64,000 nt of DNA, taken from IMG/VR virus record IMGVR_UViG_3300045738_001212, positions 32,001 to 96,000 of that record. One strand, given 5' to 3'. The position numbers and the translations under genes were made by a program. The first letter of the stretch is position 1, and every line of letters starts with the position of its first letter. Below the pieces are notes generated by a model. It ran no database searches and was not told the DNA's origin. It saw nothing but the letters and a program-made list of their open reading frames with translations. Below, in pieces: positions 1,133 to 54,759 of this stretch. This stretch comes from a virus.

Positions 1133-1656
1133 ACGTATAATGTACCACGCAAACGTCTCACTGTCAAGGATAAACCACCCAACCCGCCGCGTAGCGGTGG
1201 GTTGTTTTAGCTTGCACTGAGATAAAAAATCTGCGGGCGTTTTTCTGACTCACTGTCGCATGGCCACGCTTACCACGCATGGGGCCACACGCCGACTATT
1301 TCGCTATTTGGGTGATCGCCTAAAGCGTGAGTCTTGGCTACCGTAAGGGTCATGCCCCAGTAAGAGGCTTCGTAATAGCTGCCCGATGTGAAATTCCGGG
1401 TTCTGATTGTCCAGTTAGATGTTTCGCTCATGGGTATAATGTAACACGAAAAACGCTACCTGTCAAGGAAAAACAGTGAGGCTCAAAAAATGCTGCCGCT
1501 TTTTCAACTCACAATCAATTAGGTCAATTAATCACGTTTATATAGGGTAATTGTTTCGCAAGGCACCCCAGTAAAACAGATATTTAGATGATAAGAATTT
1601 CCTATTTACCCCTGATTTCTCCGATGAGAAATACCCCCTTTTTAAGAAATTATATG

Positions 1657-1685
1657 TTGACAGATAGGCTATTTGGTGGTATAGT
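1657..1685 (+). promoter_or_regulatory. sigma70 promoter
   Basis: TTGACA (1657-1662)-N17-TATAGT (1680-1685) with extended TG. Confidence 0.8.
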
Positions 1686-1691
1686 ATTCTT

Positions 1692-1816
1692 GTTGGTGGC
1701 AATGGTAGCCCTCGCTGAATAAGTGAGTGCCCTCGCAGGAAAGCCCCTAGTGGAAGCGCGACGAAGCTAGACGGTGATACGATACTGGAGGGGTGAGGTT
1801 CAATCCCTCGCACCAA
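1692..1816 (+). ncRNA. tRNA-like structured RNA with enlarged variable region
   Basis: begins at predicted TSS; D-like arm GGC-AATGGTA-GCC, 5-bp/7-nt arm, ~65-nt closed domain, T-arm TGAGG-TTCAATC-CCTCG, 3' CACCA pairing with 5' TGGTG. Confidence 0.55.
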
Positions 1817-1825
1817 TAACAATTT

Positions 1826-2023
1826 ATGATGAACGACAAATGTAAATGTGGAGGTTGTGGTGCGCCCGTAGCGTGGGAGTACGACGCCCCTTATCAGGAG
1901 TACCCCGGCGCGAAGGTGTGGGGCGGGGAATGGTTCGTCGAGTGCGAGAAATGCGGGTGGAGCGATGCCACCAAACAAGACTTGAGCCATTACTCCATAC
2001 GCGAGAACACGCGGGGGTGGTGA
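1826..2023 (+). CDS. small zinc-ribbon protein
   Basis: CxxC...CxxC motifs in 65 aa. Confidence 0.5.
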   Translation: MMNDKCKCGGCGAPVAWEYDAPYQEYPGAKVWGGEWFVECEKCGWSDATKQDLSHYSIRENTRGW

Positions 2024-2199
2024 GTTAAGAAAGCCCCCGCATTTTTTTCAACTCAGTGCAAGCCTTTTCTTTTGTCGATCACGAGTGATCGTCTAAATAG
2101 TTTGTCAATCATATTTCCACTATTTTGATCGTCTAAATTTGCTAAACGAAAAGCCCCCCCGCTTGCGCGGGAGGGCTTTGGTTCTTCACCCCTTGGCTT

Positions 2200-3093
2200 T
2201 TAGTTCAGAGCCAGCTTGACCACTTCAGAGGGAACGGCCTTGACCAGCTTGTCAAGCTTGGCGGATTGCTCCGCAGCACCCCGCAGCTTCCGCAGCACCT
2301 TGGTGCTAACGGTGTTGGCGTACTCGAAACGCTCCCTGCTCACGTCATGGGTGAGGTGTTGGGTGGCTGCGTTGTAGAGTGTCCACAGATTGCGGGCTTC
2401 GTCTTCCTCGCGGGCGGGATTCTCCCACACCTTGAGGATGCCGTCCTTGACCACGTTAGACAGCACCTTCGAGCGGTTCAACTGGTCGAGGATGTTGCGC
2501 CCCTGCTCTTGCGTGATGTCACGCTCGCCCAAGATGCTGAAGCCTTGCGCGGCTTCGTTGAAGCTTCCGGTGGCTCTGTCGAGAGCGTCCCCGATAAAGC
2601 TAATCTCTACCGCTGCGGTATGACGGCGATTCATGCCGAACTCATTCTCCAAGGTGGTCATGCCGTTGAGGCAAACCAGCCGCACCATGCCAAGCGCGAA
2701 GGATACGCGCAGGGAACGGTCAAAGGAGTTTTGCAGGGTGAGGCGCATTCCTAATTCCATGCCCTTCACTCTGTCCTCGCGCCGTGTGGCGATGGCCGTC
2801 TCATTCGCGAAGTCGTACTGCGCGAACATCTTCTCGCCGCGACCAGTCACGACAATGTGGCGGCTTGTGGGAACCATCCCGCGAGACTCAAAAGCCTCTT
2901 CGGCATTGGCAATCAAATCACCGTTTTGCACAAAGCCGTACTGCTCCGTGCCCCAACCTAATTCCTCGCCCGTATCGGTACGGACGTGCGCGTATACGCG
3001 GGAGCGGTTGCTGTTGGGAAGGGTAAGGGGGACACGCTCCACGGTGTAATCGAAAGCGGTGGGGTCGGAGGTTTGAATAGTGTTTCTGGCCAT
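2200..3093 (-). CDS. DUF932-family phage/plasmid protein
   Basis: NSFDRS...RLVCLNGM...RRHT motif typical of DUF932. Confidence 0.75.
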   Translation of the reverse strand: MARNTIQTSDPTAFDYTVERVPLTLPNSNRSRVYAHVRTDTGEELGWGTEQYGFVQNGDLIANAEEAFESRGMVPTSRHIVVTGRGEKMFAQYDFANETAIATRREDRVKGMELGMRLTLQNSFDRSLRVSFALGMVRLVCLNGMTTLENEFGMNRRHTAAVEISFIGDALDRATGSFNEAAQGFSILGERDITQEQGRNILDQLNRSKVLSNVVKDGILKVWENPAREEDEARNLWTLYNAATQHLTHDVSRERFEYANTVSTKVLRKLRGAAEQSAKLDKLVKAVPSEVVKLALN

Positions 3094-3797: not shown

Positions 3798-3994
3798 TTA
3801 TCCTCCAATCTCTTAAACTTGTCTACTATGATATCACAAACATCTTCCGTAATGGATTGCTTCTCTTCGTCTGTGAACGTGAATGGTGGGGTGTAGCCCT
3901 CCATGTATGTAATCACATCTTCCTGTAGCTGCTCCTTCACCTCTTTAATGACAAGGGATTGCGTGTGCTGAAATGGTTTGCGTAATGTTCTCAT
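3794..3994 (-). CDS. hypothetical protein
   Basis: 66 aa, in coupled operon with RBS. Confidence 0.6.
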   Translation of the reverse strand: MRTLRKPFQHTQSLVIKEVKEQLQEDVITYMEGYTPPFTFTDEEKQSITEDVCDIIVDKFKRLEDK

Positions 3995-4616: not shown

Positions 4617-5051
4617 CTATTCGCTTAACGAGATTTGGTGGTCGCTCTCGGGAATGTTTACCTTTGAGATGTTTTCCTCCCACCTTTGATTCTCAAACAT
4701 GTTGGCGACGGCTTTTGCTACATCTTCTTTTGAAACGTCAGAGAAATCCCTTTTAGGTGTGCTGCCTAATACCTCACCCCAAGGGACATTGATTCTCCAC
4801 CCGACTGCTAAACACTCATGCCATACACCCTTCACGCAAACGTAATCACCCACCATCATTGAGCGAACTTCGAGCTTCTTAAAGAGGGTACACTCCCGAC
4901 CACTCCCGTTGTTCCAATCCTCCCACACCGCGTCAAGGATGTCTGGGTCTGTGTACTCACGCCCCTTGCTGTCCTCTACTGGGTAGTCCAACCAGAACTT
5001 CTTACATTGCTTCTCGGTCATGTCCCGATATTGAATTTTAACTCTTATCAT
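4617..5051 (-). CDS. hypothetical phage protein
   Basis: 144 aa, RSMMVGDYV motif. Confidence 0.6.
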   Translation of the reverse strand: MIRVKIQYRDMTEKQCKKFWLDYPVEDSKGREYTDPDILDAVWEDWNNGSGRECTLFKKLEVRSMMVGDYVCVKGVWHECLAVGWRINVPWGEVLGSTPKRDFSDVSKEDVAKAVANMFENQRWEENISKVNIPESDHQISLSE

Positions 5052-6300: not shown

Positions 6301-7098
6301 TTATACAGCCTCCATTTGTTTGCGCTTGCTGTAGCCGTTCCACCCACGCCGTTTCAGTTCCTGTAGTGCTTGGCTTGCTGCGCTACCCTTTGGCTGTGTG
6401 CCGTGAATGAGTAAGGCAAAGCTCTTTGTGCCGAATGCTGCGTGGTAATCATCGTGGTCAATTTCAAAGTCCATTGCATCAGCTTGTTCCTCGCTGTAAA
6501 CTACCTCCGCGTACTTTAGGCCATGCTCGACAATCAGCGCGTCATGCTTGCCACCGTAGGAGGCGGTAAGCGCAAAGTTTGAAGGGATTGAATCAATACG
6601 CGCCACCCAATACTTTAGGCTTTTCGTGTATGCGTAAAAATGTTTGTCAGGCATACGCCGCGCAACTTCAAGCCATGCGTCAAAATACGCTTGATTGAAA
6701 AAGTCACCGCCAACATGGACACGCATGATATCAAATTTTTTGGGAAGCATCGATTCCAGCAAATCAGCAATGGCTTTCACTTGGTCTTTGTCATAACGCC
6801 ATGCGTCCATCATCACTTCTTTAATTGCCTCAAAATTACGCCACACCATTGCGCGAGTGTTTTTGTACTGTGATTCAGAGCTTGCGGCGAAGCAACGAAA
6901 TTCCGTGTCAGGCCCATCCGTGATTTTACCCGTTTCCCTGTTGGCCTTGGATAAGCATTCTTTGGCGGCGGGACAAGTCCACCCACTAGGCAAAGTGAAG
7001 GATTTAATAGTTTTGCCGAGCCGGTTTGCCATCGCGATAAGCTTGGCGTTGGCTTGTGAGAATGTGAGAGTCAAAGGTTTAGTCGTAGTAGGTTTCAT
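6301..7098 (-). CDS. GP88-family phage protein (Cys-cluster, radical-SAM-like)
   Basis: LPSGWTCPAAKEC, RVHVGGDF, YAYTKS motifs. Confidence 0.7.
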   Translation of the reverse strand: MKPTTTKPLTLTFSQANAKLIAMANRLGKTIKSFTLPSGWTCPAAKECLSKANRETGKITDGPDTEFRCFAASSESQYKNTRAMVWRNFEAIKEVMMDAWRYDKDQVKAIADLLESMLPKKFDIMRVHVGGDFFNQAYFDAWLEVARRMPDKHFYAYTKSLKYWVARIDSIPSNFALTASYGGKHDALIVEHGLKYAEVVYSEEQADAMDFEIDHDDYHAAFGTKSFALLIHGTQPKGSAASQALQELKRRGWNGYSKRKQMEAV

Positions 7099-10837: not shown

Positions 10838-11186
10838 TGTTGTAATCCTTTTAATTAGTCAGCACACCAGTGATGTTTTAATCCTCTATATTTGGAATCA
10901 ATAAATTTGCTATTTTTTCTCCCTTTCAGACCGTGTTTTAATCCTCTAATACTTAAATGGAGTCATGTTGTTGTAATCCTCTCACCCTATTACTCTCTGT
11001 GTTTTAATCCTCTATATTTGGAGTCAATAAATTTGCTGTTTTTTTATCGGCGTTTGGTTATGTGTTTTAATCCTCTAATACTTAAATTAAATGGCTTTCA
11101 GGGCGATGTTTTAATCCTCACAAAATACATTCCCGAGCTTCATGTGTTTTAATCCTCGTGCTTAAAGCGGCGAATGTTGTAATCCA
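10838..11186 (-). CRISPR. degenerate CRISPR-like array A, 9 repeats
   Basis: TGTT(G/T)TAATCCTC at 10838, 10874, 10934, 10969, 11000, 11063, 11107, 11145, 11175; two carry a 37-nt long form TGTTTTAATCCTCTATATTTGGARTCAATAAATTTGC; unique intervening sequences. Confidence 0.8.
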
Positions 11187-11194
11187 CTACAAGA

Positions 11195-11223
11195 AGTATA
11201 CCACCAGCCTTATTTCGAGTCAA
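11195..11223 (-). promoter_or_regulatory. sigma70 promoter driving array A
   Basis: TTGACT-N17-TATACT, ~9 nt upstream of first repeat. Confidence 0.75.
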
Positions 11224-11314: not shown

Positions 11315-11569
11315 TTACCTTTTCATACGTCGATAGTTCTTCGCCCAAATGACATTGCACATTTCAGTTGCAGTTTGATCTATTCTGGTTTCAGGCCAAG
11401 CAGGATTATAGATGTGGAGCATTTCATGAATAAGAGTATTTAAATATTGTTTAGATTTTAATCTGCCATCTATTTCAATTTTATTTTCTCCTACCCACGC
11501 TAAACCTAGAGCCTTCTCCCTACCGAGAGGCCGCTCTACTACTTCAATTTTAGTCTTTCTTCTAGGCAT
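11315..11569 (-). CDS. small HExxH metallopeptidase-like protein
   Basis: NTLIHEMLH; GTGTAATT motif upstream of ATG. Confidence 0.65.
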   Translation of the reverse strand: MPRRKTKIEVVERPLGREKALGLAWVGENKIEIDGRLKSKQYLNTLIHEMLHIYNPAWPETRIDQTATEMCNVIWAKNYRRMKR

Positions 11570-12405
11570 ATGGGTAATTACACAATGCTACCAACTTTAT
11601 TATAGGTATATTTTGGAGAATATATAAAAAGCGGTCACCCATTTTTTTAAATTTTAATAAACAAATTAACCACTCTCTTCTTTGTATACTATGCCCTTTA
11701 GACCTCTTTTACTAGGTTTTCGGGGGGAAAGTGGGGCAAAGGTGTAGGTTTCTGTGGAGTAGGGGGATTGTAGGCAAGTAGTAGGACAGCGTAAACCAAA
11801 CAAAAGCCTTTTGCAATGCAAATAAACAAAAAAATGCGTTGGACGAAACAATTACAGGCAATGTTGTCTAAATCATCCCTCCTGCTTAACCCCTATCAAG
11901 ACGAGAAGCATCTCAATAGTAACAGGCATTGTTTCTGAGTCCGATGCCAACGCTCACCGTCGATTAGTTAGGGATAATAGTTGCGACAAAAAGTTATTTA
12001 ACCAACAAGGCTACTTCCCCCCAATTTACCTTACAAGAACCCTGCACCATCTCATCGACAATGGTATGGCAGTCTCCTATCCCTTCGCATTCACAACCGC
12101 TTTGCTGGACTAGCTCCGCTGCGTATTCGATGTTATTAGCCTTCACGGCTATCGTGCCTTTCACGACCCAAGTAACAGGTACTTCGTATTTCATTTCGTT
12201 TGGCCTAATGTCTTTTATCCTTATCATTAATCTATATGTGGCGCACCTAGTAACGCCCAGCATATTCTAAACCCAAGGAAGCATATCACTATTATAACTA
12301 TATCACCAATCATGTTTATCCTTTCTTTTGTTGTTGTCTTCGTCCGTACTGATGCCATAAATCTCCGATTTTGCGTTTTGCCCATTCGCTCTTGCCAACT
12401 AGTTG

Positions 12406-12804
12406 TGTTGTAGTCCTCTTAGTCCTCTTTCGCTCGATAAACTCTTTAAACTCTTTAAGGCGTAGCCGCGATGGTACATTAGCATCACCGTTCTTGACGA
12501 TGTTAGCCATGCGATTGTACAGTTCGTCTAGTATCTCTTTATCAGTCATTTCATTATAGGAAGCATTGTTGTAATCCTCATTTTACCGTTTTTTTTGCTG
12601 AGTCCTTCTTTGTTGAGTGCTATGTTCCAAAATGGAACTAACCTCTTCCTCGGCAAGTTGTTTGGGTATGTGTTAGGTGTCGTAATCCTCTTGTCGTGTG
12701 TTGTGCGTGTCAGTGTCTTTTCTTGTTGTAATCCTCTCAAATCCATCGGGTTGGTATGTGCCGCAATCCTCATGTACTCAGGGAGCTTTTTTGTTGTAGT
12801 CCTC
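12406..12804 (-). CRISPR. degenerate CRISPR-like array B, ~6 repeats
   Basis: core repeat at 12406, 12567, 12678, 12724, 12759, 12792; irregular spacing. Confidence 0.6.
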
Positions 12805-14678: not shown

Positions 14679-14726
14679 TGTTTTAATCCTCTTATACTTA
14701 TGATCTGCTGTTATGTTTTAATCCTC
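14679..14726 (-). CRISPR. two-repeat mini-array C
   Basis: TGTTTTAATCCTC at 14679 (with TTATACTTA extension) and 14714. Confidence 0.6.
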
Positions 14727-41523: not shown

Positions 41524-42450
41524 TTATCCGAGGATTTCCGCAAGCTCTTTCTTTCTCCTCTCTAAGGTAAAACGTAATTTACGAAAAGCTATTGCTTCAA
41601 TTTGGCGAATACGTTCTCTGGTCACCTTATACTTTGCCCCAATTGTCTCTAGGGTACTATTGTCTCTCGTCCCGAACCCAAAACGAAGTTTCAAGATATC
41701 TACTTCCCTTGGGGTAAGTCTTTCTTCCATTAGCTCACGTAACTGCGTGAACCTATCATTCATCTCCACTTCCTTATCTGGACGCATGAAAACGTTATCA
41801 GGAATAATTTCTGCCATATCCTGATCTTCACTTTCTCCGATTTTCTTATCCAACGAAACTACAGAGTCTCTTGCGAAAAGAATGTTCTGCACTTGCAAAA
41901 CTGATATTCCTATTTCGTGAGAAATTTCTTCCTGAGAGGGTTCATGCTTAAACTCTTCCTTATATGTATTAATGAAATCAAAGACTTTCTTGGTCTTTCC
42001 TTGGTAGTGGACAGGAAGCCTGATTAAATTAGCTTTATTCGCTATAGACCGTAGGATATTTTGCTTGATCCACCAGACCGCGTAAGTAGAAAACTTTACA
42101 GTTACTCCGCTCTTAGCCTTCACTCCGGGTAGATACTTGTCTACCGCCGTGGCTAGACCAATGTTTCCTTCGCTTATTAAATCAATAAAATCCATCCTGC
42201 CTTTGTATCTTTGAGCGATGTTAACCACAAGACGTAGATTTGCCAGTATCATTTTTTCCCTAGCTGCCGCTCCAGCTTTGCGGGTGTGTTGTCCGGCCCT
42301 AGCGTTAGTTTTCCATTTTTGGATTTTAGTCGCAAGAACTTGCTCTTCTCCCCTAGATAAAAGGGGGGCGTTTAGAGCTTCCGAACTATACATCCCCATA
42401 AGGCTGCGATCTTGATATATACTATCCTTGATTTTGGCCTTTTTTTTCAT
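41524..42450 (-). CDS. RNA polymerase sigma70-family (RpoD/SigA-like) factor
   Basis: ANLRLVVNIA, DLISEGNIGL, KFSTYAVWWIKQ, IRLPVH, TLETIG...VTRERIRQIE; no region 1.1. Confidence 0.9.
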   Translation of the reverse strand: MKKKAKIKDSIYQDRSLMGMYSSEALNAPLLSRGEEQVLATKIQKWKTNARAGQHTRKAGAAAREKMILANLRLVVNIAQRYKGRMDFIDLISEGNIGLATAVDKYLPGVKAKSGVTVKFSTYAVWWIKQNILRSIANKANLIRLPVHYQGKTKKVFDFINTYKEEFKHEPSQEEISHEIGISVLQVQNILFARDSVVSLDKKIGESEDQDMAEIIPDNVFMRPDKEVEMNDRFTQLRELMEERLTPREVDILKLRFGFGTRDNSTLETIGAKYKVTRERIRQIEAIAFRKLRFTLERRKKELAEILG

Positions 42451-42986
42451 CGTAATTCCTTTTTTAGTAATCTCCATCTATCGCTATCTATCTTTTTCTC
42501 TCCACTGTCAATGCTCTTCAACATGGCTACTACTTCTTCAATGTTATCGTAAATATAATGATGAGGCAGCATCCCCATCATCCATAGAGGAGTCGCGTGT
42601 TTGCCCCCCTCCATAGAAATGAAAATGGGCTTCTTCATTCTAACCGCTGTGACTATCTCCTCCGCGCTACCCCAGCTTGCTATCTCTGGTAAAAGGTGAG
42701 CTATAATAAAATCGCATCTATCAACAAGATTCAAGTCGTAGCTGCGAACGGTCTTCATTCTCTCGGCTACGTCATTAAAGTAACCATGCTTCTGGCAATG
42801 ATCTAGTGAAAGACGAGTGTCTTCATCCTCATTTACATCCTTTACGAATGGCTTTTTGTAGGGGTTAAAAATTCTAATATCTAGGGGGGCGAGTTCTCCT
42901 TCTACATACTCCCTCCAATCGCGACCATTCGCATATTGCATATGGCCGACCAAATAAGTCCTAGTCTTATATAAGAGGTTTTCCAT
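42447..42986 (-). CDS. nucleoside 2-deoxyribosyltransferase-like protein
   Basis: YLVGHM, DWRE, FNPY, DLNLVDRCD, GSAEE. Confidence 0.65.
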   Translation of the reverse strand: MENLLYKTRTYLVGHMQYANGRDWREYVEGELAPLDIRIFNPYKKPFVKDVNEDEDTRLSLDHCQKHGYFNDVAERMKTVRSYDLNLVDRCDFIIAHLLPEIASWGSAEEIVTAVRMKKPIFISMEGGKHATPLWMMGMLPHHYIYDNIEEVVAMLKSIDSGEKKIDSDRWRLLKKELR

Positions 42987-44160: not shown

Positions 44161-44242
44161 TGTCGTAATCCTCTGTATTTAGAATCAATAAATTTGCAGT
44201 ATATTGATAGCTACTCCAGTGGTGTCGCATGTCGTAATCCTC
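44161..44242 (-). CRISPR. two-repeat mini-array with one long-form repeat
   Basis: 37-nt TGTCGTAATCCTCTGTATTTAGAATCAATAAATTTGC (44161-44197), 32-nt spacer, core repeat at 44230. Confidence 0.7.
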
Positions 44243-44580
44243 TTAACTGTCCTTAACGAGCCTTTTTGATATCGGCAGTTACCTTATCGAAAGGCTCCTT
44301 GACGTAATGAGAGTTAGCTTCAGTAACGACAACCGTTCCTTCTTTATCGGTCTGCTGCCCGTCGGCTTGCCCCGCAAAGGAGTAGTACTCGATGATTTTG
44401 TCAACTCTGACAGCTAACTGTTCGGTAGCTGCGCGGAGTGTCCCATGTACGTTGGTTTTATACTTATTTAGTTTTAGTGTTTTCATAAAATTTAAGCGCG
44501 AGAGACAGAGCAGAAAGGTATTAACGACCCCGCCTCTCGCAAGTGTAGTTCCGCGTGACACTTCCCTACACTAAATTAAT

Positions 44581-44745
44581 GGGTGAGAGGATTCTCATTT
44601 ACCTCTATCGTTTCGGAGTCACAGCTTGAGTTTCAGTGAGAAACCCTACTTTGAACCAGCCCTTGTAAGCCCCCAGAGACGGTAATCTCCTGCAAACAAG
44701 CCCTGTACCTTAACTGCCGCGACAGCAGTTTATTCGGTCACACCC
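44581..44745 (-). ncRNA. candidate multi-hairpin structured RNA
   Basis: ends pair (GGGTG/CACCC); internal hairpins AACTGC/GCAGTT, GGAGA/TCTCT, GGGTTTC/GAAACTC, AGAGG/CCTCT; intergenic. Confidence 0.5.
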
Positions 44746-45124
44746 TTCGCTGGCGATCAACCAGCAAAATTATTTTAAAGAACAAATATTTTAGAATCTT
44801 CTATGAAGACTCTGGGGTGATATTGATCAATATCTTTCCCGTCTTTTACATTTACAAATTTTCTTTTTTTGTTTACCCGCACTTGATGTTTCCATTTGGG
44901 GCGAGAAGACTTCTTTTCCTCTAGGGAACGAATGTCGCCCAAGTCTACGCAACCCGTAAGAGTTCGCTTGGTGATAGCGACATCCCCCATGTGCAAAGCG
45001 TGTGTGCGCTTAAGCACTACAGGTTTGTCGCCGTATGCGTGTGCTCGCTTACTGCCCTTAACCTCTAGGCACTTCTTCTTTGAATTGTAAATTACTACTA
45101 CTTGCACGTTGTTATTTCTCCAGT

Positions 45125-45171
45125 TGTCGTAATCCTCTATAAATCGGTTAAGGGGTATTGTTGTAATCCTT
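45125..45171 (-). CRISPR. two-repeat mini-array
   Basis: core repeats at 45125 and 45159, 21 nt between. Confidence 0.6.
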
Positions 45172-45658: not shown

Positions 45659-46303
45659 TCATAACAGATTTCTATTTTTTATTATCTTCCTTGCTCTTCG
45701 TCTAGCGTAAAATACCCTGCTCATAATCGTTCCTATCGAGCACTTCATTATTTTAGCAGCTTCGGCATAAGATTTTTCTTCTTCTATCACTAGCTCAATA
45801 ACCCTTTTTTGTTCGGGGTTCAGGCTCCCTTTTATCTGCGCCAAAACCTTCTTAAAGTGCTCAAAGCTTTCTTTCTCTTCAAGTCGGTTGCTGGGGCTTT
45901 CATCGTTAAGTAAGAGTATACCAGAACCTTGTAAGAAGTCAAGAGGATTTTTATCATTTTCTAAACAAAAATCTGCACAAAAATCTGAATAGGAAATCTC
46001 CTTAGATTTACGTCTTTTGTCCTGCCTGTAGAAATCATAGAAAGAATTGCGCCCAACCCTGAAAAACCACGTAGCAAAGGCACTTTTGAACTTAAAGGTC
46101 TTTATCCTCCTCCAAGATTTTACGCATGTAAGCTGCAAGATGTCTTTCGCGTCGGCTTCAGATACCCCCATTTTGAACAAAGAAGAGCGCACTAGGGCAC
46201 TATGACGCCCAAGAAGAACCTCGAATGCCTCCTTGCTACCTCTTTGACTCTTCTTTACTAAAGCTTCGTCTTTGAGGTTGGAAAGTTGAACTTTTTTGCT
46301 CAA
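45659..46303 (-). CDS. ECF-type RNA polymerase sigma factor
   Basis: DEALV...GSKEAFEVL, FKFKSAFATWFFR, SYAEAAKIMKCSIGTIMSRVFYAR. Confidence 0.88.
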   Translation of the reverse strand: MSKKVQLSNLKDEALVKKSQRGSKEAFEVLLGRHSALVRSSLFKMGVSEADAKDILQLTCVKSWRRIKTFKFKSAFATWFFRVGRNSFYDFYRQDKRRKSKEISYSDFCADFCLENDKNPLDFLQGSGILLLNDESPSNRLEEKESFEHFKKVLAQIKGSLNPEQKRVIELVIEEEKSYAEAAKIMKCSIGTIMSRVFYARRRARKIIKNRNLL

Positions 46304-46324: not shown

Positions 46325-46555
46325 TGTTGTAATCCTCTATACCGATTGGAAGTACTATGTTGTGATCCTCTCAAATACTGGAACAACTCAAATGTTCTAA
46401 TCCTCTGTGCTTCTTTCATTCGGTGGTGTCGTAATCCTCACGCTTATCAAACGAGATGTCGTAATCCCCTTACTTGATACTAGGCTGTGCATAGTTCATC
46501 CCATGTTCTAATCCTCATCCTAATCCTAATCGATTTCGTGGTGTGTCGCAACCCT
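46325..46555 (-). CRISPR. degenerate CRISPR-like array D, 7 repeats, immediately 3' of tmRNA
   Basis: core repeats at 46325, 46358, 46393, 46427, 46457, 46504, 46544; 17-34 nt between. Confidence 0.8.
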
Positions 46556-46561
46556 AAAAAA

Positions 46562-47020
46562 TGGTGGAGGCGGCGGGAATCGAACCCGCGTCTTTGGAGC
46601 CATCGGCTCAAATATACTACAAGCTTAATCAGTGCCATGTTCCTCGTATATAGCAGGTCACTGATTAAACCAACCGGGCCGCTCAAAGAGCGACTGGGAC
46701 TAACGTAAAACGTTAGACGCCTACACGAGTTTGAAGTCACATTTTATACTAGCGTTACAACCGCCCTAGTTTTTTGCTCGCTATCGACGCCCTAGCTCCT
46801 TAACGAGCATCCAGAGTAGGACGGGGCAGAACTTAAGCTGCCAGCGTGGCCTCTTCGGCCCAACCGAAACGAGCGAGAATCTCGTCTGCTTCAGCCAGAG
46901 AAGGAGCCATGTCAATATTACTATTGGCATATATGTTTTTAATGGAAGTTTTAAGAGGCCAACCATCATCCTCTGCTTGCAATCTGGCGTAAGATTCCAA
47001 ATCGAATCCAGTACGCCCCC
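46562..47020 (-). ncRNA. ssrA: tmRNA
   Basis: 5' GGGGGCG pairs with CGCCTCC-A-CCA (G3:U70), GGATTCGA, T-arm GGTTCGATTCCC, tag ORF 46833-46928 ending LAA-stop. Confidence 0.93.
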
Positions 47021-47534: not shown

Positions 47535-47918
47535 TTATTTGATTTTTTTTGCGTGTCCCGCTTTTACCAAGAATTCGTTTACGGATTTGCCGTGGTATTT
47601 TCTCGTCCTTATGAAATTTTTAGTTAGTTGAACCTCGCCCAAGCACCTTCCGTATTTTCCGACACCAAGGGAAATCAGGGAAATTTCATTGTCACTGTTC
47701 TCAAGTATCTCCTTGAGCTTGGCCTTGGCTGCGAGCCCTTTCTTTTTCTCCACCTTGTCTCTCGTCCTGCTTTCGTAGGCGTCTATACCCGCTAACCTAA
47801 TGCGCTTCTTAACCCAAGTCTCAAAACCAAGGTCAATCATAGCGTCAATAGTGTCTCCGTCAACTACTTTAACTACTTTAGCTTTGTAGCGATACATCTT
47901 AGCTATTCCCCAGCCCAC
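47535..47918 (-). CDS. thermonuclease (SNase-like)
   Basis: KVVDGDT, RIRLAGIDAYE, GKYGR, LVKAGHA. Confidence 0.85.
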   Translation of the reverse strand: MGWGIAKMYRYKAKVVKVVDGDTIDAMIDLGFETWVKKRIRLAGIDAYESRTRDKVEKKKGLAAKAKLKEILENSDNEISLISLGVGKYGRCLGEVQLTKNFIRTRKYHGKSVNEFLVKAGHAKKIK

Positions 47919-48272: not shown

Positions 48273-48894
48273 TGTCGTAATCCTCTTAATATCGTCGGGA
48301 CGAAGCATGTCGCAATCCTCTTGTGCAGTCCAACCATATTTGTGTTCTAATCCTCTTAAAATCAGACTATGCGTACCCTGCGTGTTCTAATCCTCTTAAA
48401 ATATACAGGAGCAATCATGTTGCAATCCTCACTCTTAAAAGTTCACTACGGCGTGCTGTGTTGTAATCCTCTTTAAATCGCAAGCTGCTCATGTGTTATA
48501 ATCCTCTTGGTCCAAAGTATGACTGATGTTGTAATCCTCTTATACTTAAATTCGGTTACATGAGGTGCGTGTTGTAATCCTCGCTGGTTTTGTTGGTAAT
48601 GTTTTAATCCTCTTATACTTAAAAAACGCGCACAGCTTGAAATGTTTTAATCCTCTCAAATTTTACCACGATACTCCATGTTGTAATCCTCTCATGCTAA
48701 AATTACTTCTTCTGTTGTCGTAATCCTCTTTAACAGCCGTCGCAATGTTTTAATCCTCATACTTAAACTGTGCAGATTGACTCCCTGTGTTGTAATCCTC
48801 TTATACTTAAATTAGGATAAATCCGAATTATGTTTTAATCCTCTTACTTAAATTGTCAAATTCAGTCATCAGTAGGGTAAGTGTTTCAATCCTC
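48273..48894 (-). CRISPR. main degenerate CRISPR-like array E, 17 repeats
   Basis: 13-nt TGTYN(T/C)AATCCTC at 48273, 48308, 48343, 48383, 48418, 48459, 48494, 48527, 48570, 48600, 48643, 48679, 48716, 48746, 48788, 48831, 48882; 17-38 nt between, part of which is a shared TTATACTTAAA extension. Confidence 0.85.
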
Positions 48895-49137
48895 TTATGC
48901 TTGTTGATTCCTTATTTGCCTTATGGCTCTACGATGCATCCTCATGTGCTGGGGGTGAGCTTCGCACTCGCCATCAATTAATTCCATATCACATATCTCG
49001 CATTTAGGCTCGTTTAAGTCAGTCGAATGGTGTGTTTCACGGTAATGTTGTAATCCTAAATCTTCTGCTGTCGAAGGAAACTTGCAGTTAGCCCTTTCGA
49101 GTTCAAGAATAGTTATGTTTCTTTCTTCTTCAGTCAT
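48895..49137 (-). CDS. small Cys/His protein between nuclease and array
   Basis: 80 aa, CEIC...CEAH, overlaps nuclease stop; contains a repeat-like 12-mer at 49046. Confidence 0.45.
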   Translation of the reverse strand: MTEEERNITILELERANCKFPSTAEDLGLQHYRETHHSTDLNEPKCEICDMELIDGECEAHPQHMRMHRRAIRQIRNQQA

Positions 49138-50608
49138 TCTTACCTCCCAGCACGTAATTCTTAATGTTCATCGCCGCCAGCTTGTCGCGGTCATTCACCA
49201 CTCCACACTCAGGACACTCCCACACGCGCTGTGAGAGCTTTAAATCGTTGTAGATGTACCCACAGCCACACTTTTTAGATGTAGGCTCAAAACGGTCAAT
49301 TCTGATCATGTGTTTACCCGAGTGGTCGGCCTTATATTGGAACTTCGTGAAGAAGCTCCCCCAAGCAACGTCACTGATTCGGCGACTCATACCTCGCTGC
49401 TGGGCTCGACCATTGCGCTTATATTTTCCGTCCTTACCCTTTATGGGAGCTTTCTTTTCCTTCATTTGGGCAATGTTCAAATCCTCAACCGCAAAAGCAT
49501 TGAAGGGCATGTCTACTAGCGATCTGCTAAGTTCATGAGTGAAGTCGTCTCTCTTGTTTTTAATAGCCTCATCGATCTTCGCGCAAACCAGTCTTTGCTT
49601 ATTGTAGTTCTTACTCTTGAACTCCTTTCTAGCGAGCCGCCTTTGTCGAATTTTCTTTCGACGCAAGAGTCTTTGGTCGGTTTTGTACGGAGATAGCTTA
49701 TCGTCCGAGTATTCAAGCCCGAACTTGTCTAGGAAAACAGAGTTCTCAATTTTCGATTCGTCTGAAAGAGTTATGTAGTTTTTAATCCCTACGTCAATCC
49801 CAACAGTATTGGACTCATCAAATTCTTTCTTCTCTGGCATCGGAACTCCAGTATCCACGGGAATGAATACGTAATATTTATTCGTTGGAGTCCGAGTGAA
49901 AACGCACATGCCGAGTTTGGCCTTTGGGTGCTTCTCCAAAAACTCTTGCATGTTGATGTGCTGCTTAAACTTAATCCAAGTTTTGCACAGGGGCAGCTTG
50001 AATCGATTTTTTTCCCACTCCCATTTCATTTGGTTCGCTTCGCAATCAAAGTATTGGTTGTCCATCCAACTTCTAAAACGGGGGAATCCTTTATTTGGTT
50101 TTTTTGCAAAGTCTTTTTTGCTCTTCCAAAAGCCCTTAACTCTACGCTTTTTAAAACCCTCCCTATATGAAACTGCCAGCCTTTTGTATTGCCCTCCGAC
50201 AAGCCTACTCGGTGTTTCTTTTATCCAGTTGTATTCTTTGTCGTCGCCCTTTCTAAGCTTACGAAAATCTTTATCGGCCTGAGCAATGTCCAGCAACGGA
50301 AACCCAGAACATCTAATCTCTTTCTGGACTGCCTTATGTTCGTCTGACTTCTCTTCGTATACCCCGTCAGCAAGGTCTTTTTTCATTTTATCCTTAAGGT
50401 CTTGAAGATGTTTTTCGCCCCCAGACTTTTTCCATTCCTCGGTTCGTTCGTTTCTGGTATCCCAGTTTTTGGTTTGTCGGTCTACTTGCCAATTCCAATA
50501 CTTGCGGGCAGCGGCGAAGCTTTTGCTGAGAAAGTGGGTGCCGTCTTTATTTGTGTCAATTCGGTATTTTATGGCGATGACGATATTCTTAAGTTCTTTT
50601 TTGTCCAT
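49130..50608 (-). CDS. TnpB/Cas12f-like RNA-guided RuvC nuclease
   Basis: N-terminal KYRI...F...R..WN, GFPRF, RuvC-I VGIDVG, RuvC-II AVEDL, Zn finger PTSKKCGCG...CPECG, RuvC-III DRD..AAMNI. Confidence 0.9.
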   Translation of the reverse strand: MDKKELKNIVIAIKYRIDTNKDGTHFLSKSFAAARKYWNWQVDRQTKNWDTRNERTEEWKKSGGEKHLQDLKDKMKKDLADGVYEEKSDEHKAVQKEIRCSGFPLLDIAQADKDFRKLRKGDDKEYNWIKETPSRLVGGQYKRLAVSYREGFKKRRVKGFWKSKKDFAKKPNKGFPRFRSWMDNQYFDCEANQMKWEWEKNRFKLPLCKTWIKFKQHINMQEFLEKHPKAKLGMCVFTRTPTNKYYVFIPVDTGVPMPEKKEFDESNTVGIDVGIKNYITLSDESKIENSVFLDKFGLEYSDDKLSPYKTDQRLLRRKKIRQRRLARKEFKSKNYNKQRLVCAKIDEAIKNKRDDFTHELSRSLVDMPFNAFAVEDLNIAQMKEKKAPIKGKDGKYKRNGRAQQRGMSRRISDVAWGSFFTKFQYKADHSGKHMIRIDRFEPTSKKCGCGYIYNDLKLSQRVWECPECGVVNDRDKLAAMNIKNYVLGGKND

Positions 50609-50609
50609 A

Positions 50610-50788
50610 ATTATAATCCTTATTAAGTTTGGGGGTGGGAGGGAGGATTATTTCACTCCCACCCCCGAGGATTTTGTTGCCCCGAAAGCGACCCTTATGT
50701 AGACGAGCTATATAAGAAATCTTAATCTCTCGTATCTGACAACCGTAACTTCCCGTCCAACCGACGGTAGAGTTCGTATCAGCGAACT
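50610..50788 (-). ncRNA. candidate tracrRNA/omega-like leader RNA
   Basis: non-coding, several hairpins, two AATCCTC anti-repeat segments and a GTTGT segment; TTGACT-N16-TATACT promoter at 50795-50822. Confidence 0.55.
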
Positions 50789-50818
50789 ATGAAGAGTATA
50801 CCTGAAACTGTTTTGAAG

Positions 50819-51979
50819 TCAAGAGTTTTTTCCGAAAACTTCGTTCGACTGTTGGGTAACGCGAACGAAAGTGGCGCACTTGGGCATATCCTTTAGCCTT
50901 CTTGCTCCGATGTAAGTGCAGGTAGAGCGTAATCCACCAAGAATATCTTCTATCGTGCGCTTAACAAGTCCTCTATGTTCTACCCTAACCGTTTTCCCTT
51001 CGGACGAACGATAGTCCGCAACGCCACCGTTGTGCTTTTTCATGGCCGTCTCGGAACTCATTCCGTAAAAAGTCTTATATTTTTTGCCATCTATTTCTTC
51101 TTCTTGTCCTTCGCACTCCGTATGTCCAGCCAACATCCCGCCAAGCATGACAAAATCAGCACCTCCACCAAAAGCCTTGGCAACGTCCCCAACACAGGTA
51201 CAACCGCCATCAGCCATAATATACCCGCCAACGCCATGAGCGGCGTCGGCACACTCAACCACCGCGCTAAATTGGGGATAACCAACACCAGTCTGAATAC
51301 GAGTAGTGCAAACAGAACCACTTCCAATACCAACCTTGACGATATCTGCTCCATTTAAAATTAATTGCTCCGTCATCTCGCCAGTGACAACGTTCCCAGC
51401 AATGATAATAAGTGCTGGGTGCTCTTCCCTGACCCGTTTAATAAAGTCACAAAACCTCGCGGTATAGCCATTGGCTGCGTCAATACAAACAAATTGAGTA
51501 TGATAAAAATTCCAAGTAATATTATGGAGGTAGTCCATATCGTCAAATTTATTTTCGTCGTATTTAATGCCAATAGAGGGAGATATATGTTCATAAATTC
51601 TATTTTGCCAACAAGCTGAGTCTGGATCATGTTTCCAGTCCGCTGAGTTAGCTTCCTTGCTTTCCTGTGTTTTGTAAACTCCGTAGCCATCCATCTTGTG
51701 TAGCCATCTTTTTATATCGTTGTGTTTGCTGATGCAGGTAAGCATACGGTGTCGAGCGAAAGCCTTTGCCATCTCAAAGGTTCCGACTGTATCCATATTT
51801 GAAGCTACAATTGGAACGCCTTTCCAACCGTAAGCTTTTGGGTCAGCACCTTCCCCGCCAGCGTTAGGAAAAGTAAACTCGCGAACCAAGTCAACTTCCT
51901 TACGAGAAGTTAAGGTGGAACGCTTCGGGCGAAGAAGAACGTCCTTGTAGTCTAATTTTATTTCTGGTTCAATTCTCAC
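50819..51979 (-). CDS. guaC: GMP reductase
   Basis: [47 protein letters not shown]. Confidence 0.92.
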
Positions 51980-53171: not shown

Positions 53172-53402
53172 TTACATGTCAAGCCAATTTAAATAACCAT
53201 AAATATTTAAAATCACCAAAGCGAAAGACATCGCCGCTGTCGGATACGCTTCTTTCTTGAGGCAATAGATTCCTATAAGAGTATTTCCGACCACCCAGAC
53301 AAGCCAAGAACTTATCATCTGATTAGCGTTCAGGTAGTACCCGACAAGAACGAACAACGCCCCTATCCACCCTAACATGTGCGTTTCGTAATACTTCTTC
53401 AC
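53172..53402 (-). CDS. PnuC-like small membrane protein
   Basis: three TM helices, WLVWVVGN, NIYGYLNW. Confidence 0.6.
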   Translation of the reverse strand: MKKYYETHMLGWIGALFVLVGYYLNANQMISSWLVWVVGNTLIGIYCLKKEAYPTAAMSFALVILNIYGYLNWLDM

Positions 53403-54151
53403 ACGGTTGTGACTCCCCTCTTTGCGACCACTCGGGAGGCGCATTTATTTGCGAAATCTAAAGCTCTGGACGCGCTCTTGCAGGACATTATGTTCACGGC
53501 GAATGAGGCTAGAAAAGTATCTCCTGCCCCCGACAAGTCTTGGACTTCTCTCGCTTTAAATGATGGGTGTAGTTCTTTTTGGTAACGGCAGCCTTTCTCT
53601 CCTTGGGTAACTATAAGTTTATCCATCCAGACGTTATCAAAGTCTTCATTATCTTTCTTGTAGTGTTCCTTGCTTTTTTCGTACTCTTGCTGGTTTATAA
53701 CGAAGAATCTCATATCGCGCCCCAAGGGCAAAATAAAATTTTTCTTACTATGCACGAAGGTATTCGGATGGCTCTTACAAATCCAAGCAATATCTAGATT
53801 AGTAAGGAAGCCCTTATTATAGTCTGAGACGATTACCCCGTCATATCCCTCTAGACACCCCGGAGTTTGCTCGAACTTCTCCTTGGTGTGATCGTTTTCA
53901 TCAACCCTAAGAAGCATTTGGTTAGTTTTCATATCAACGTATCTTGATTTGATGATATGATTTTTGTTAGTAAATATGTCGCATTCGACACCGTGAGCCT
54001 CGACATTAGCTTGCACGTTTTTCGCCATCCCCCCGTTTGAAATTTCCTCTACTGGATTAAAAACAGGAACAGGTGCCTCTGGGCAAATCCTATCGCAGTC
54101 TCCATACTTAAACTTATCCGTGCAACTATCGCCTATTACTAAAAATTTCAT
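53399..54151 (-). CDS. PfkB-family kinase, HldE/RfaE domain I-like
   Basis: VIGD, RICPEAPVPV, GGMAKNV, SDYNKG, DLSGAGDTF. Confidence 0.85.
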   Translation of the reverse strand: MKFLVIGDSCTDKFKYGDCDRICPEAPVPVFNPVEEISNGGMAKNVQANVEAHGVECDIFTNKNHIIKSRYVDMKTNQMLLRVDENDHTKEKFEQTPGCLEGYDGVIVSDYNKGFLTNLDIAWICKSHPNTFVHSKKNFILPLGRDMRFFVINQQEYEKSKEHYKKDNEDFDNVWMDKLIVTQGEKGCRYQKELHPSFKAREVQDLSGAGDTFLASFAVNIMSCKSASRALDFANKCASRVVAKRGVTTV

Positions 54152-54759
54152 ATTAACCTTTGGCTTTCTTTGTCTTTGAAAAGTTTTTTCTCCGTGCAGT
54201 AATAACACCTAAGCAGATCGCTGTCTATCCCTAGCAGACGCCTTATTTCTACCAATTCGTATCCCGACAACGCCCTAAAGTCTGCTGTAGAAAGGTCTAC
54301 GTTACACCTACTGCCCGCCATTACGCCATTGTAAAAGACAAACCTCTCTTCTTCTCCAAACTCGTATCCCTCTGGATACAGATACTTGCAAACCCACATG
54401 AACAAATTTCTGCGCCACCTTCTCATCTTCTTAGCTGACCCCATCGTGTAGCCGATAACGAAAGCTTCATCTTTGACCAGCAGCCCCCTGCCTAAAACAA
54501 TATGTATACAATCATGAGTAAATAAATCTACTGCTCCAGTAAATAATCTAGATGTAAAATATTTAGGATTTTCAGTTAACTTAATCATTAATGGAACATC
54601 TTCTTGGGCCAGCGCAAAAGACTTCATGCTGTCTTTCGCTTTGCCTAACGTGATCTCCCTGCCTAAGCGGATATGCCACGCTTCAGCCCTTTCTTGGGCT
54701 ATCCGTTTCTGCCACCTCTCTTCTCCCTTAGCATACGCTTTGTGTTGTAGAGGGGTCAT
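54148..54759 (-). CDS. Coq4-like HDxxH protein
   Basis: HDCIHIVLG...DEAFVIG. Confidence 0.45.
   Translation of the reverse strand: MTPLQHKAYAKGEERWQKRIAQERAEAWHIRLGREITLGKAKDSMKSFALAQEDVPLMIKLTENPKYFTSRLFTGAVDLFTHDCIHIVLGRGLLVKDEAFVIGYTMGSAKKMRRWRRNLFMWVCKYLYPEGYEFGEEERFVFYNGVMAGSRCNVDLSTADFRALSGYELVEIRRLLGIDSDLLRCYYCTEKKLFKDKESQRLI

Follow-up and report, generated by a model that had tools for sequence, protein, structure and literature searches.

How the TnpB nucleases of transposons gave rise to Cas12 effectors is an open question. The current model holds that an omegaRNA was split into a trans-activating RNA (tracrRNA) and a short CRISPR RNA (crRNA), the latter multiplying afterwards into arrays. 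Here we analyse a 64,000-nt stretch of viral DNA (hereafter the window), bases 32001-96000 of the 157,997-bp IMG/VR virus record IMGVR_UViG_3300045738_001212 (91% complete by CheckV). It encodes a TnpB-like protein, a structured non-coding RNA (hereafter the helper RNA) and dozens of short units, each of which begins with a 13-nt repeat (the tag) and continues into unique sequence (the spacer). To judge from its sequence, the locus probably provides a domesticated TnpB with a guide system that is cryptic, dispersed and minimal in its handle.

By analogy, the functionally closest described systems are the TranC/Cas12f class, in which a tracrRNA works with arrayed crRNAs, and the scoutRNA systems of Cas12c and Cas12d. 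TranC systems (transposon-CRISPR intermediates) are tied to a split-omegaRNA model of type V origin (PMC13565253; 10.64898/2026.03.27.714800; LaTranC 9JFO/9JFQ). These reports describe a TnpB-sized, IS605-derived effector with a separate tracr-like RNA, arrayed guides and no adjacent adaptation genes, all of which recall the present locus as we read it, and CauTranC9 also comes from a phage genome. The TranC repeats described measure 32-38 bp and stand in a single array next to the gene, whereas in our locus conservation covers 13 nt (24 at most), spacers span 17-22 nt, the units form eight clusters over 44 kb and the helper RNA lies upstream. Cas12f (type V-F, as in Un1Cas12f1) resembles our locus in being a miniature TnpB-derived effector with a tracrRNA and non-palindromic repeats. 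It differs in its canonical 36-37-nt repeats and in the cas1, cas2 and cas4 genes that usually accompany it. An earlier sequence-only reading of this DNA, made without database searches, had likened the end of the Un1Cas12f1 repeat to the tag. The published single-guide RNA (sgRNA) scaffold of Un1Cas12f1 does end in ...GAAGGAATGCAAC; this end, GAAGGAAUGCAAC, loosely resembles GAGGAUUACAACA, and the likeness is a resemblance only.

Cas12c and Cas12d require a separate scoutRNA of short complementarity together with their crRNAs, an arrangement like the one proposed here. Cas12d spacers are given as only 17-19 nt long in one report (bioRxiv 10.1101/2023.12.12.571249). Both are large Cas12 proteins in bona fide CRISPR loci, and we liken them to our locus by RNA architecture, not by sequence. 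The closest phage example is the Cas12r-CRISPR system of Thermus Lalka phages, in which a single repeat is enough for a guide to be made, only 18 nt of the spacer are used and competing mobile elements are targeted (bioRxiv 10.64898/2026.04.20.719267). It shares with our locus a phage-encoded type V-like nuclease, degenerate repeats and the lack of adaptation genes. It differs in its 29-bp repeats, 31-33-nt spacers, 26-nt handle and one array by the gene, and in that no tracr or scout RNA was detected.

On the transposon side, work by cryo-electron microscopy portrays the ISDra2 omegaRNA as a natural sgRNA, with a tetraloop that joins a crRNA-like part to a tracr-like part (PDB 8H1J, 8BF8; PMC10097598). 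The crRNA-like segment is 16 nt long, made up of the 3' strand of stem 4 and a pseudoknot strand at positions -6 to -2, and the guide is also 16 nt (PMC10097598). ISDra2 TnpB is the closest solved relative of our protein and carries the same catalytic motifs, and its 16-nt guide and 16-nt crRNA-like segment match the sizes of tag plus guide. ISDra2, however, encodes a single omegaRNA in cis, placed at the gene's 3' end within a TnpA transposon, whereas here neither a 3' RNA (in the clade) nor TnpA (in the genome) was found.

The core of the locus is a single operon. From one early promoter it runs through the helper RNA, tnpB, a zinc-finger open reading frame (ORF) and a 17-unit array:

50795..50822, minus strand: strong sigma-70-type promoter, TTGACT-16-TATACT, heading the helper RNA and tnpB operon
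50631..50790, minus strand: structured non-coding RNA of ~160 nt, a tracr/scout-like candidate delineated by conservation and covariation
50609..50621, minus strand: tag-like AAGGATTATAATT, by its sequence the ribosome-binding region of tnpB
49130..50608, minus strand: tnpB-like gene, 492 aa, RuvC D272/E375/D475 intact, single copy in the genome
48895..49137, minus strand: zinc-finger ORF (CxxC...CxxH), 80 aa, its start overlapping the tnpB stop, without a Pfam match
48273..48894, minus strand: array A, 17 units of GAGGATTRNRACA, with 17-38 nt to the next tag, of which the first 17-22 nt are unique

The 492-aa protein passes the Pfam cut-offs for HTH_OrfB_IS605, OrfB_IS605 and Cas12f1-like_TNB, with scores of 56 bits for PF01385, 64 bits for PF07282 and 27 bits for PF12323. 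Both features that mark the TnpB family, the OrfB_IS605 RuvC-like core and the C-terminal zinc-ribbon (TNB) domain, are present. The catalytic motifs of ISDra2 TnpB, DVGIK, (T)E(H)L and DRD, line up with D272, E375 and D475. The triad is invariant across the 14 clade members (alignment A1), over which the protein is kept at 58-80% identity. The sequence-only reading had called this protein a TnpB with an intact RuvC triad, and the Pfam matches and the alignment bear it out.

By sequence, the closest natural solved structure is ISDra2 TnpB (E 6e-22); the sole better score belongs to a nuclease that is RNA-guided and was designed by artificial intelligence. The predicted fold, of modest confidence (predicted local distance difference test, pLDDT, 69), has its best Foldseek match in 8H1J (ISDra2 TnpB, E 1.6e-17) and its next in ISFba1 TnpB (8IAZ). 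Cas12f, Cas12m and LaTranC rank below TnpB in both the sequence and the fold searches, and the LaTranC match is weak (E 2e-11) and confined to the zinc-ribbon region. An N-terminal helical region is ~60-80 residues longer than in ISDra2 TnpB. By sequence and predicted fold, then, the protein is a TnpB and not a Cas12. The compact type V-like system proposed earlier holds up in its tag and guide lengths, which fit the guide RNAs of TnpB and type V effectors, and fails in the identity of its protein.

The usual partners of such proteins were not found. Neither Y1 TnpA (PF01797) nor a serine recombinase (PF00239) had a match in the 158-kb genome, while control genomes did match, so that the earlier remark that no tnpA or resolvase stands beside the gene extends to the whole genome. 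The companion remark on cas1 and cas2 is confirmed in its first half, as Cas1 had no match across the same 158 kb; Cas2 was not searched for. As to a 3' omegaRNA, the clade shows no conserved non-coding segment downstream of the gene (transposon ends were not searched directly): in L007 the next gene begins ~30 nt past the tnpB stop, and the other loci have a conserved protein ORF there. The regular direct-repeat array of ~25-40 bp that marks type V loci does not stand beside the effector, the conserved part of each unit being 13 nt plus a degenerate extension of at most 11 nt (at most 24 nt in all), and the only Rfam match to a CRISPR direct repeat has an E value of 2.4. TnpA and a 3' omegaRNA were looked for and not found, so that the locus does not count as an IS605 element; with the same outcome for repeat regularity and Cas1, it does not count as a canonical CRISPR-Cas system either.

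A conserved, active-site-intact TnpB needs a guide RNA. The helper RNA, the sole conserved RNA in the vicinity, lies in the 210 nt upstream of tnpB and keeps this place across all 11 close-clade loci, which are the window, eight metagenome contigs and two contigs of IMG/VR. The position of the promoter is conserved in all of these loci as well. In the helper RNA a 5' hairpin that varies is accompanied by the hairpin CCGUC-GGUUG-GACGG, by a long-range stem and, at 50631-50666, by a 3' hairpin rich in G+C. RNAalifold (alignment A2) predicts 41 pairs, 6 of which have compensatory changes, for example CCGUC/GACGG to CCGUG/CACGG. In most relatives a U-tract follows the G+C-rich 3' hairpin, forming a terminator. 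In L091 a 469-aa ORF with its own TTGACT promoter (1632-3041) lies between this terminator and tnpB, which implies that the helper RNA is a gene in its own right. The helper RNA matched no Rfam family, and IMG/VR-wide its core pattern is confined to the two tnpB contigs.

Two copies of the invariant heptamer AAUCCUC stand in the helper RNA, one in a linker (50667-50673) and one in a hairpin loop (50643-50649). The single-stranded linker AAAAUCCUC and the loop (U)AAUCCUCC complement the invariant tag positions 1-7(8), GAGGAUU. In L007 and L006 a near-consensus tag plus ~20 nt stands right after the scaffold hairpin and before the tnpB start. This could be the remnant of an ancestral cis arrangement.

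Outside the clade the covariance model of the helper RNA core matches only at L076 10911-11025. This is precisely the 3' end of a phage tnpB of 33% identity, where one would expect a canonical omegaRNA. A match of this type was not reproduced in sister loci or metagenome loci, and we therefore keep it as a lead only.

The sequence-only reading had described one array, of 17 same-strand repeat copies. Exactly 17 matches to GAGGATTRNRACA lie at 48273-48894, all on the minus strand, and in place of one array there are ~45 units in eight clusters, together with the separate tracr/scout-like RNA. Chance alone would give 0.02 matches to GAGGATTRNRACA in the window, which has 37, every one of them on the minus strand; allowing one mismatch gives ~43-45 units, with 0 on the plus strand. 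Spread over 44 kb, the eight same-strand clusters are without exception downstream of tnpB with respect to transcription, and the other 114 kb of the 158-kb genome contain no copy. A strand bias of 43-45 to 0, combined with placement only downstream of tnpB, points to a role at the RNA level. The tag has the same polarity in the relative G005 (71 kb). Besides array A, the tag search located the following:

46325..46516, minus strand: array B, 6 units, directly downstream of the tmRNA (transfer-messenger RNA) gene
45125..45171, minus strand: array C, 2 units, its first spacer conserved at 24/26 in the L006 contig
44161..44242, minus strand: array D, 2 units
14679..14726, minus strand: array F, 2 units
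12567..12804, minus strand: array G, 5 units, of which two have one mismatch; a degenerate unit stands alone at 12406-12418
10838-11187, minus strand: array H, 9 units, with a promoter TTGACT-17-TATACT at 11195-11223
4910..4922, minus strand: lone tag match, the most downstream copy

In the tag, GAGGAUU (positions 1-7) and ACA (positions 11-13) do not vary, a purine always occupies positions 8 and 10, and position 9 is unconstrained. G never stands first in a spacer, and spacer positions 2-18 carry no positional information (<=0.2 bit). Units recur with periods of 30-51 nt, and the shortest period, 30 nt (13+17), is seen four times. An A/U-rich TTTAAGTAT(AA) often stands before the next tag; where it is clear the unique part is ~19-20 nt, and two units of array A have 17 nt between cores (period 30), just as described earlier. 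Array H is headed by the same promoter class as the tnpB operon. Its first tag begins 7 nt past the -10 box, so that this tag would form the 5' end of the transcript.

The repeats are linked to TnpB, as had been proposed. No terminator was found between tnpB and array A within their shared operon, and tag units are present in every close-clade locus for which the downstream flank is available. The same array beside homologues, which the sequence-only reading had suggested looking for, did not appear: L006 and L007 lack the 17-unit array. More remote relatives that lack tnpB and the helper RNA are free of tags in the 20 kb surrounding the same marker gene, and a search for relatives via the neighbouring sigma factor returned none besides the L006 contig. 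Single tag matches in L056-L075 lie in an unrelated conserved coding gene and not at the 3' ends of outgroup tnpB genes. In 185,579 prokaryote genomes the search for tag arrays hit nothing but ordinary CRISPR repeats with a GAGGATTGAAAC end and tandem repeats in coding sequence, none of them close to a tnpB.

Two simple functions of the tag were considered and rejected. It is not a generic ribosome-binding site, as the upstream regions of ~130 ORFs are without it, and the units are not tandem promoters for a phage sigma factor, as no second element follows the tag at a constant distance. The viral contig L003, which is unrelated, has the same 13-mer, GAGGATTGAAACA, at two places 30 nt apart (3885-3927, minus strand), where it serves as a duplicated ribosome-binding site before an 8-codon mini-ORF and before the gene that follows; the tag is intrinsically Shine-Dalgarno-like.

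The zinc-finger ORF is translationally coupled to tnpB and conserved in the window, L006, L087-L090 and L093. Its variable middle contains in-frame tag-like units, one in the window (49046-49058) and two in L006 (where the ORF is at 11475-11726); the homologues of L087-L090 and L093 are without them. The presence of in-frame units in some homologues suggests that tag-plus-spacer units can insert or duplicate inside a coding gene.

The unique parts of the units behave like spacers, again in keeping with the sequence-only reading: they are unrelated to one another and to those of syntenic arrays in relatives, and one spacer of a relative has a 25/25 match in another phage. Among themselves, the spacers of array A resemble each other no more than shuffled sequences do. 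Two contigs, G1 (~80% nucleotide identity) and G2 (~72%), share the promoter and first tag of array H, at which position the window has 9 units, G1 has 7 and G2 has 3. The array H spacers are no more similar to those of G1 and G2 than shuffles are. A few units are near-perfectly conserved between the window and L006 or L087 (24/26 and 26/26). As read from these sequences, total replacement beside perfect retention is the pattern of array turnover, and neutral drift would not give it.

Over 25/25 nt, the G2 unit at position 131 has a spacer that matches the antisense strand of a conserved 203-aa gene in the L007 phage. The match is non-syntenic: its flanks are unrelated to the 203-aa gene, and the window allele of the gene has 3 mismatches. 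The 25-nt match begins at spacer position 4, which leaves the 3 nt proximal to the transposon-adjacent motif (TAM) mismatched, and no TAM can be derived from it. A target variant that also matches the first three spacer bases was not found.

Taken together, these observations make it fairly probable that the locus consists of a domesticated phage TnpB and a split omegaRNA, with a tracr/scout-like RNA and tagged guides from dispersed micro-arrays. TnpB would have been domesticated in the phage, its transposon context lost and its guide RNA split in two. The ~160-nt RNA may serve as a tracr- or scout-like scaffold without a guide of its own; it ends in a hairpin or terminator and so cannot carry a 3' guide. 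Each unit would supply a 13-nt handle and a 17-20-nt guide. The handle GAGGAUU may pair with the scaffold AAUCCUC in the manner of stem 4 (repeat:anti-repeat) of the ISDra2 omegaRNA, and (N)(R)AC near the 3' end of the handle may pair with the invariant GGUUG loop to form a small pseudoknot. A split at the tetraloop of the ISDra2 omegaRNA predicts a handle of ~13-16 nt, a guide of at least 16-17 nt and a scaffold ending AAUCCUC, as we see here. The A/U-rich TTTAAGTATAA stretches may be the sites at which the strings are cut, whether by host RNases or by TnpB. The resulting ribonucleoprotein would then cleave TAM-flanked DNA that matches its guides. The guides are probably aimed at competing phages, with co-infecting related phages or other mobile elements as the likeliest targets, in marker exclusion or superinfection competition.

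Several points weigh against this reading. The complementarity between tag and helper RNA is just 7-8 bp, and 7% of shuffled tags equal or beat its RNAduplex energy. The anti-repeat is identical in all clade members, which leaves no covariation between tag and scaffold to be read, and AAUCCUC could equally pair with the AAGGAUUA ribosome-binding site of tnpB itself as a cis regulator. The case for homology between the helper RNA and omegaRNAs comes down to the single weak covariance-model match in L076 (14.9 bits). Beside the 78%- and 58%-identical homologues the 17-unit array is missing and few units occur. G1 and G2 are fragments that may or may not include tnpB. Of ~100 spacers searched, one has a target, with its 3 TAM-proximal nt mismatched. 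The sequence-only reading had called for a search of spacers for targets; window spacers had no match in their own genome, in 50,697 GenBank phages or in 5 related contigs. Within the phage genome (self-targeting), among cultured phages (where the repeat was involved) and in the five more distant related contigs, matches were at chance level only. Finally, no mechanism is known by which units are gained without Cas1-Cas2 or TnpA.

A stronger version of the same idea would see a virus-built, multiplexed guide library for TnpB, with a trans-acting scaffold and with guides of 17-20 nt, each tagged with 13 nt, dozens of which are strewn over early transcripts, a number of them beginning right at promoters or following a tmRNA. 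Units would be gained without Cas1-Cas2 or TnpA, even in frame within a coding gene, array targeting would be independent of CRISPR adaptation and the library would serve phage-versus-phage warfare. We regard this version, judged on the sequences in hand, as unlikely.

The alternative that survives best, though we consider it improbable, is an anti-Shine-Dalgarno small RNA (sRNA) network. The helper RNA would be a cis leader, a trans-acting sRNA or both, with AAUCCUC as its seed; the tags would be Shine-Dalgarno-like sites to which it binds; the arrays would be sponges or decoys for the helper RNA, for ribosomes or for an RNA-binding protein; and TnpB would be an unrelated neighbour. The tag does contain GAGGA, and tag plus ATG makes a good translation start, as at tnpB (AAGGATTATAATT-ATG) and in contig L003. 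Phage genes are, however, generally without the tag as a ribosome-binding site, a start codon follows few of the units, and conservation runs 6 nt beyond the Shine-Dalgarno-like part to include the invariant ACA. The helper RNA is sRNA-like in having a conserved single-stranded stretch beside a terminator hairpin, yet it is found only together with tnpB. Any spacer and any number of copies would be compatible with a sponge, but neutral sponge spacers should retain homology between phages that are 80% identical; none is retained, and yet a few units are near-perfect. The network also leaves the 25/25 spacer match to a foreign phage gene unexplained.

It is very unlikely that the units instead mimic a host CRISPR system, acting as Racr-like decoys or crRNA-like regulators that are loaded into host Cas proteins and block or redirect immunity. 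Phages are described as encoding solitary mimics of CRISPR repeats (PMC10651486) as well as cr-like RNAs by which host Cas proteins are hijacked (10.1101/2024.10.29.618823). In many ordinary bacterial CRISPR repeats the end reads GAGGATTGAAAC(A), as does the first unit of array A, and short spacers would suit binding without cleavage. Against mimicry, no match to a host repeat is shown, tag positions 8-10 vary where a Cas-recognised 5' handle would not be expected to, and the conserved part is 13 nt only, with no Cas6-type hairpin in it. Mimicry also leaves unexplained the strict co-occurrence of the units with tnpB and the helper RNA, their shared operon and their complementarity to the helper RNA.

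Hardly likely either is a selfish or decaying TnpB beside unrelated DNA repeats (cassettes that shuffle the early region, or sites for a DNA-binding protein, such as tandem sigma-factor promoters), which would suit a protein that nests among TnpBs by sequence and fold, the shuffling of early genes via repeated regulatory cassettes in T4-type phages, and an extracytoplasmic function (ECF)-like sigma gene among the arrays, given that ECF -35 boxes contain AAC, but which does not sit with the conserved active site, the single tnpB copy, the strict strand bias and placement of the units downstream of tnpB, and the failure to find TnpA, nor, for promoters, with the lack of a -10-like signal at a fixed distance after the tag (TTTAAG follows at 13 to 21+ nt) or with 17 promoters 30-50 nt apart, which make no sense.

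The surroundings of the locus are those of a phage genome in which the minus strand is the coding strand for almost all window genes. The rIIA protein is 27-30% identical to the versions of roseophage and Aeromonas T4-like phage. Two sigma factor genes, two further structured RNAs and several auxiliary genes lie around the operon and the arrays:

53399-54208, minus strand: PfkB-family kinase gene, an auxiliary gene around the locus
50819-51979, minus strand: IMPDH/GMP-reductase family gene, an auxiliary gene around the locus
47535-47918, minus strand: staphylococcal-nuclease homologue, an auxiliary gene around the locus
46562-47020, minus strand: one-piece, full-length tmRNA (Rfam RF00023, 124 bits), which ARAGORN did not call
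45659-46303, minus strand: ECF-like sigma factor gene, 214 aa, one of two phage sigma genes
44576-44766, minus strand: manA RNA motif (RF01745, 57 bits, slightly over the gathering score), between two tag clusters
42447-42986, minus strand: nucleoside 2-deoxyribosyltransferase-like protein, below the Pfam cut-off
41524-42477, minus strand: group-1-like sigma factor gene, 317 aa, the second phage sigma gene

Array B begins ~45 nt past the CCA end of the tmRNA, and the two may thus be co-transcribed. A tag unit precedes the ECF-like sigma gene, and its spacer (ttcgccgtagct.aag) is conserved in L006 and L087. Genome-wide, a TGGTACATTATAC- or CTATATTATAAC-like motif stands 0-3 nt before many gene starts, for example the minus-strand starts at window positions 7098, 7597, 1132 and 323. 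This placement suggests a promoter class that gives leaderless mRNAs.

The locus resembles the split-omegaRNA stage of the current model for the origin of Cas12 in a very minimal form, with a 13-nt handle, guides of about mature length and no adaptation genes found. It is carried by a lytic-type phage, and its arrays are invisible to standard CRISPR finders. If our reading is true, the locus would be a directly testable natural intermediate between transposon nucleases and Cas12, and it would suggest that cryptic strings of guides have been overlooked elsewhere. It would also represent a compact, naturally multiplexed editor architecture of a 492-aa protein, one scaffold RNA and guide units of ~30 nt. 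For the phages themselves, it would be a new example of RNA-guided phage-phage competition.

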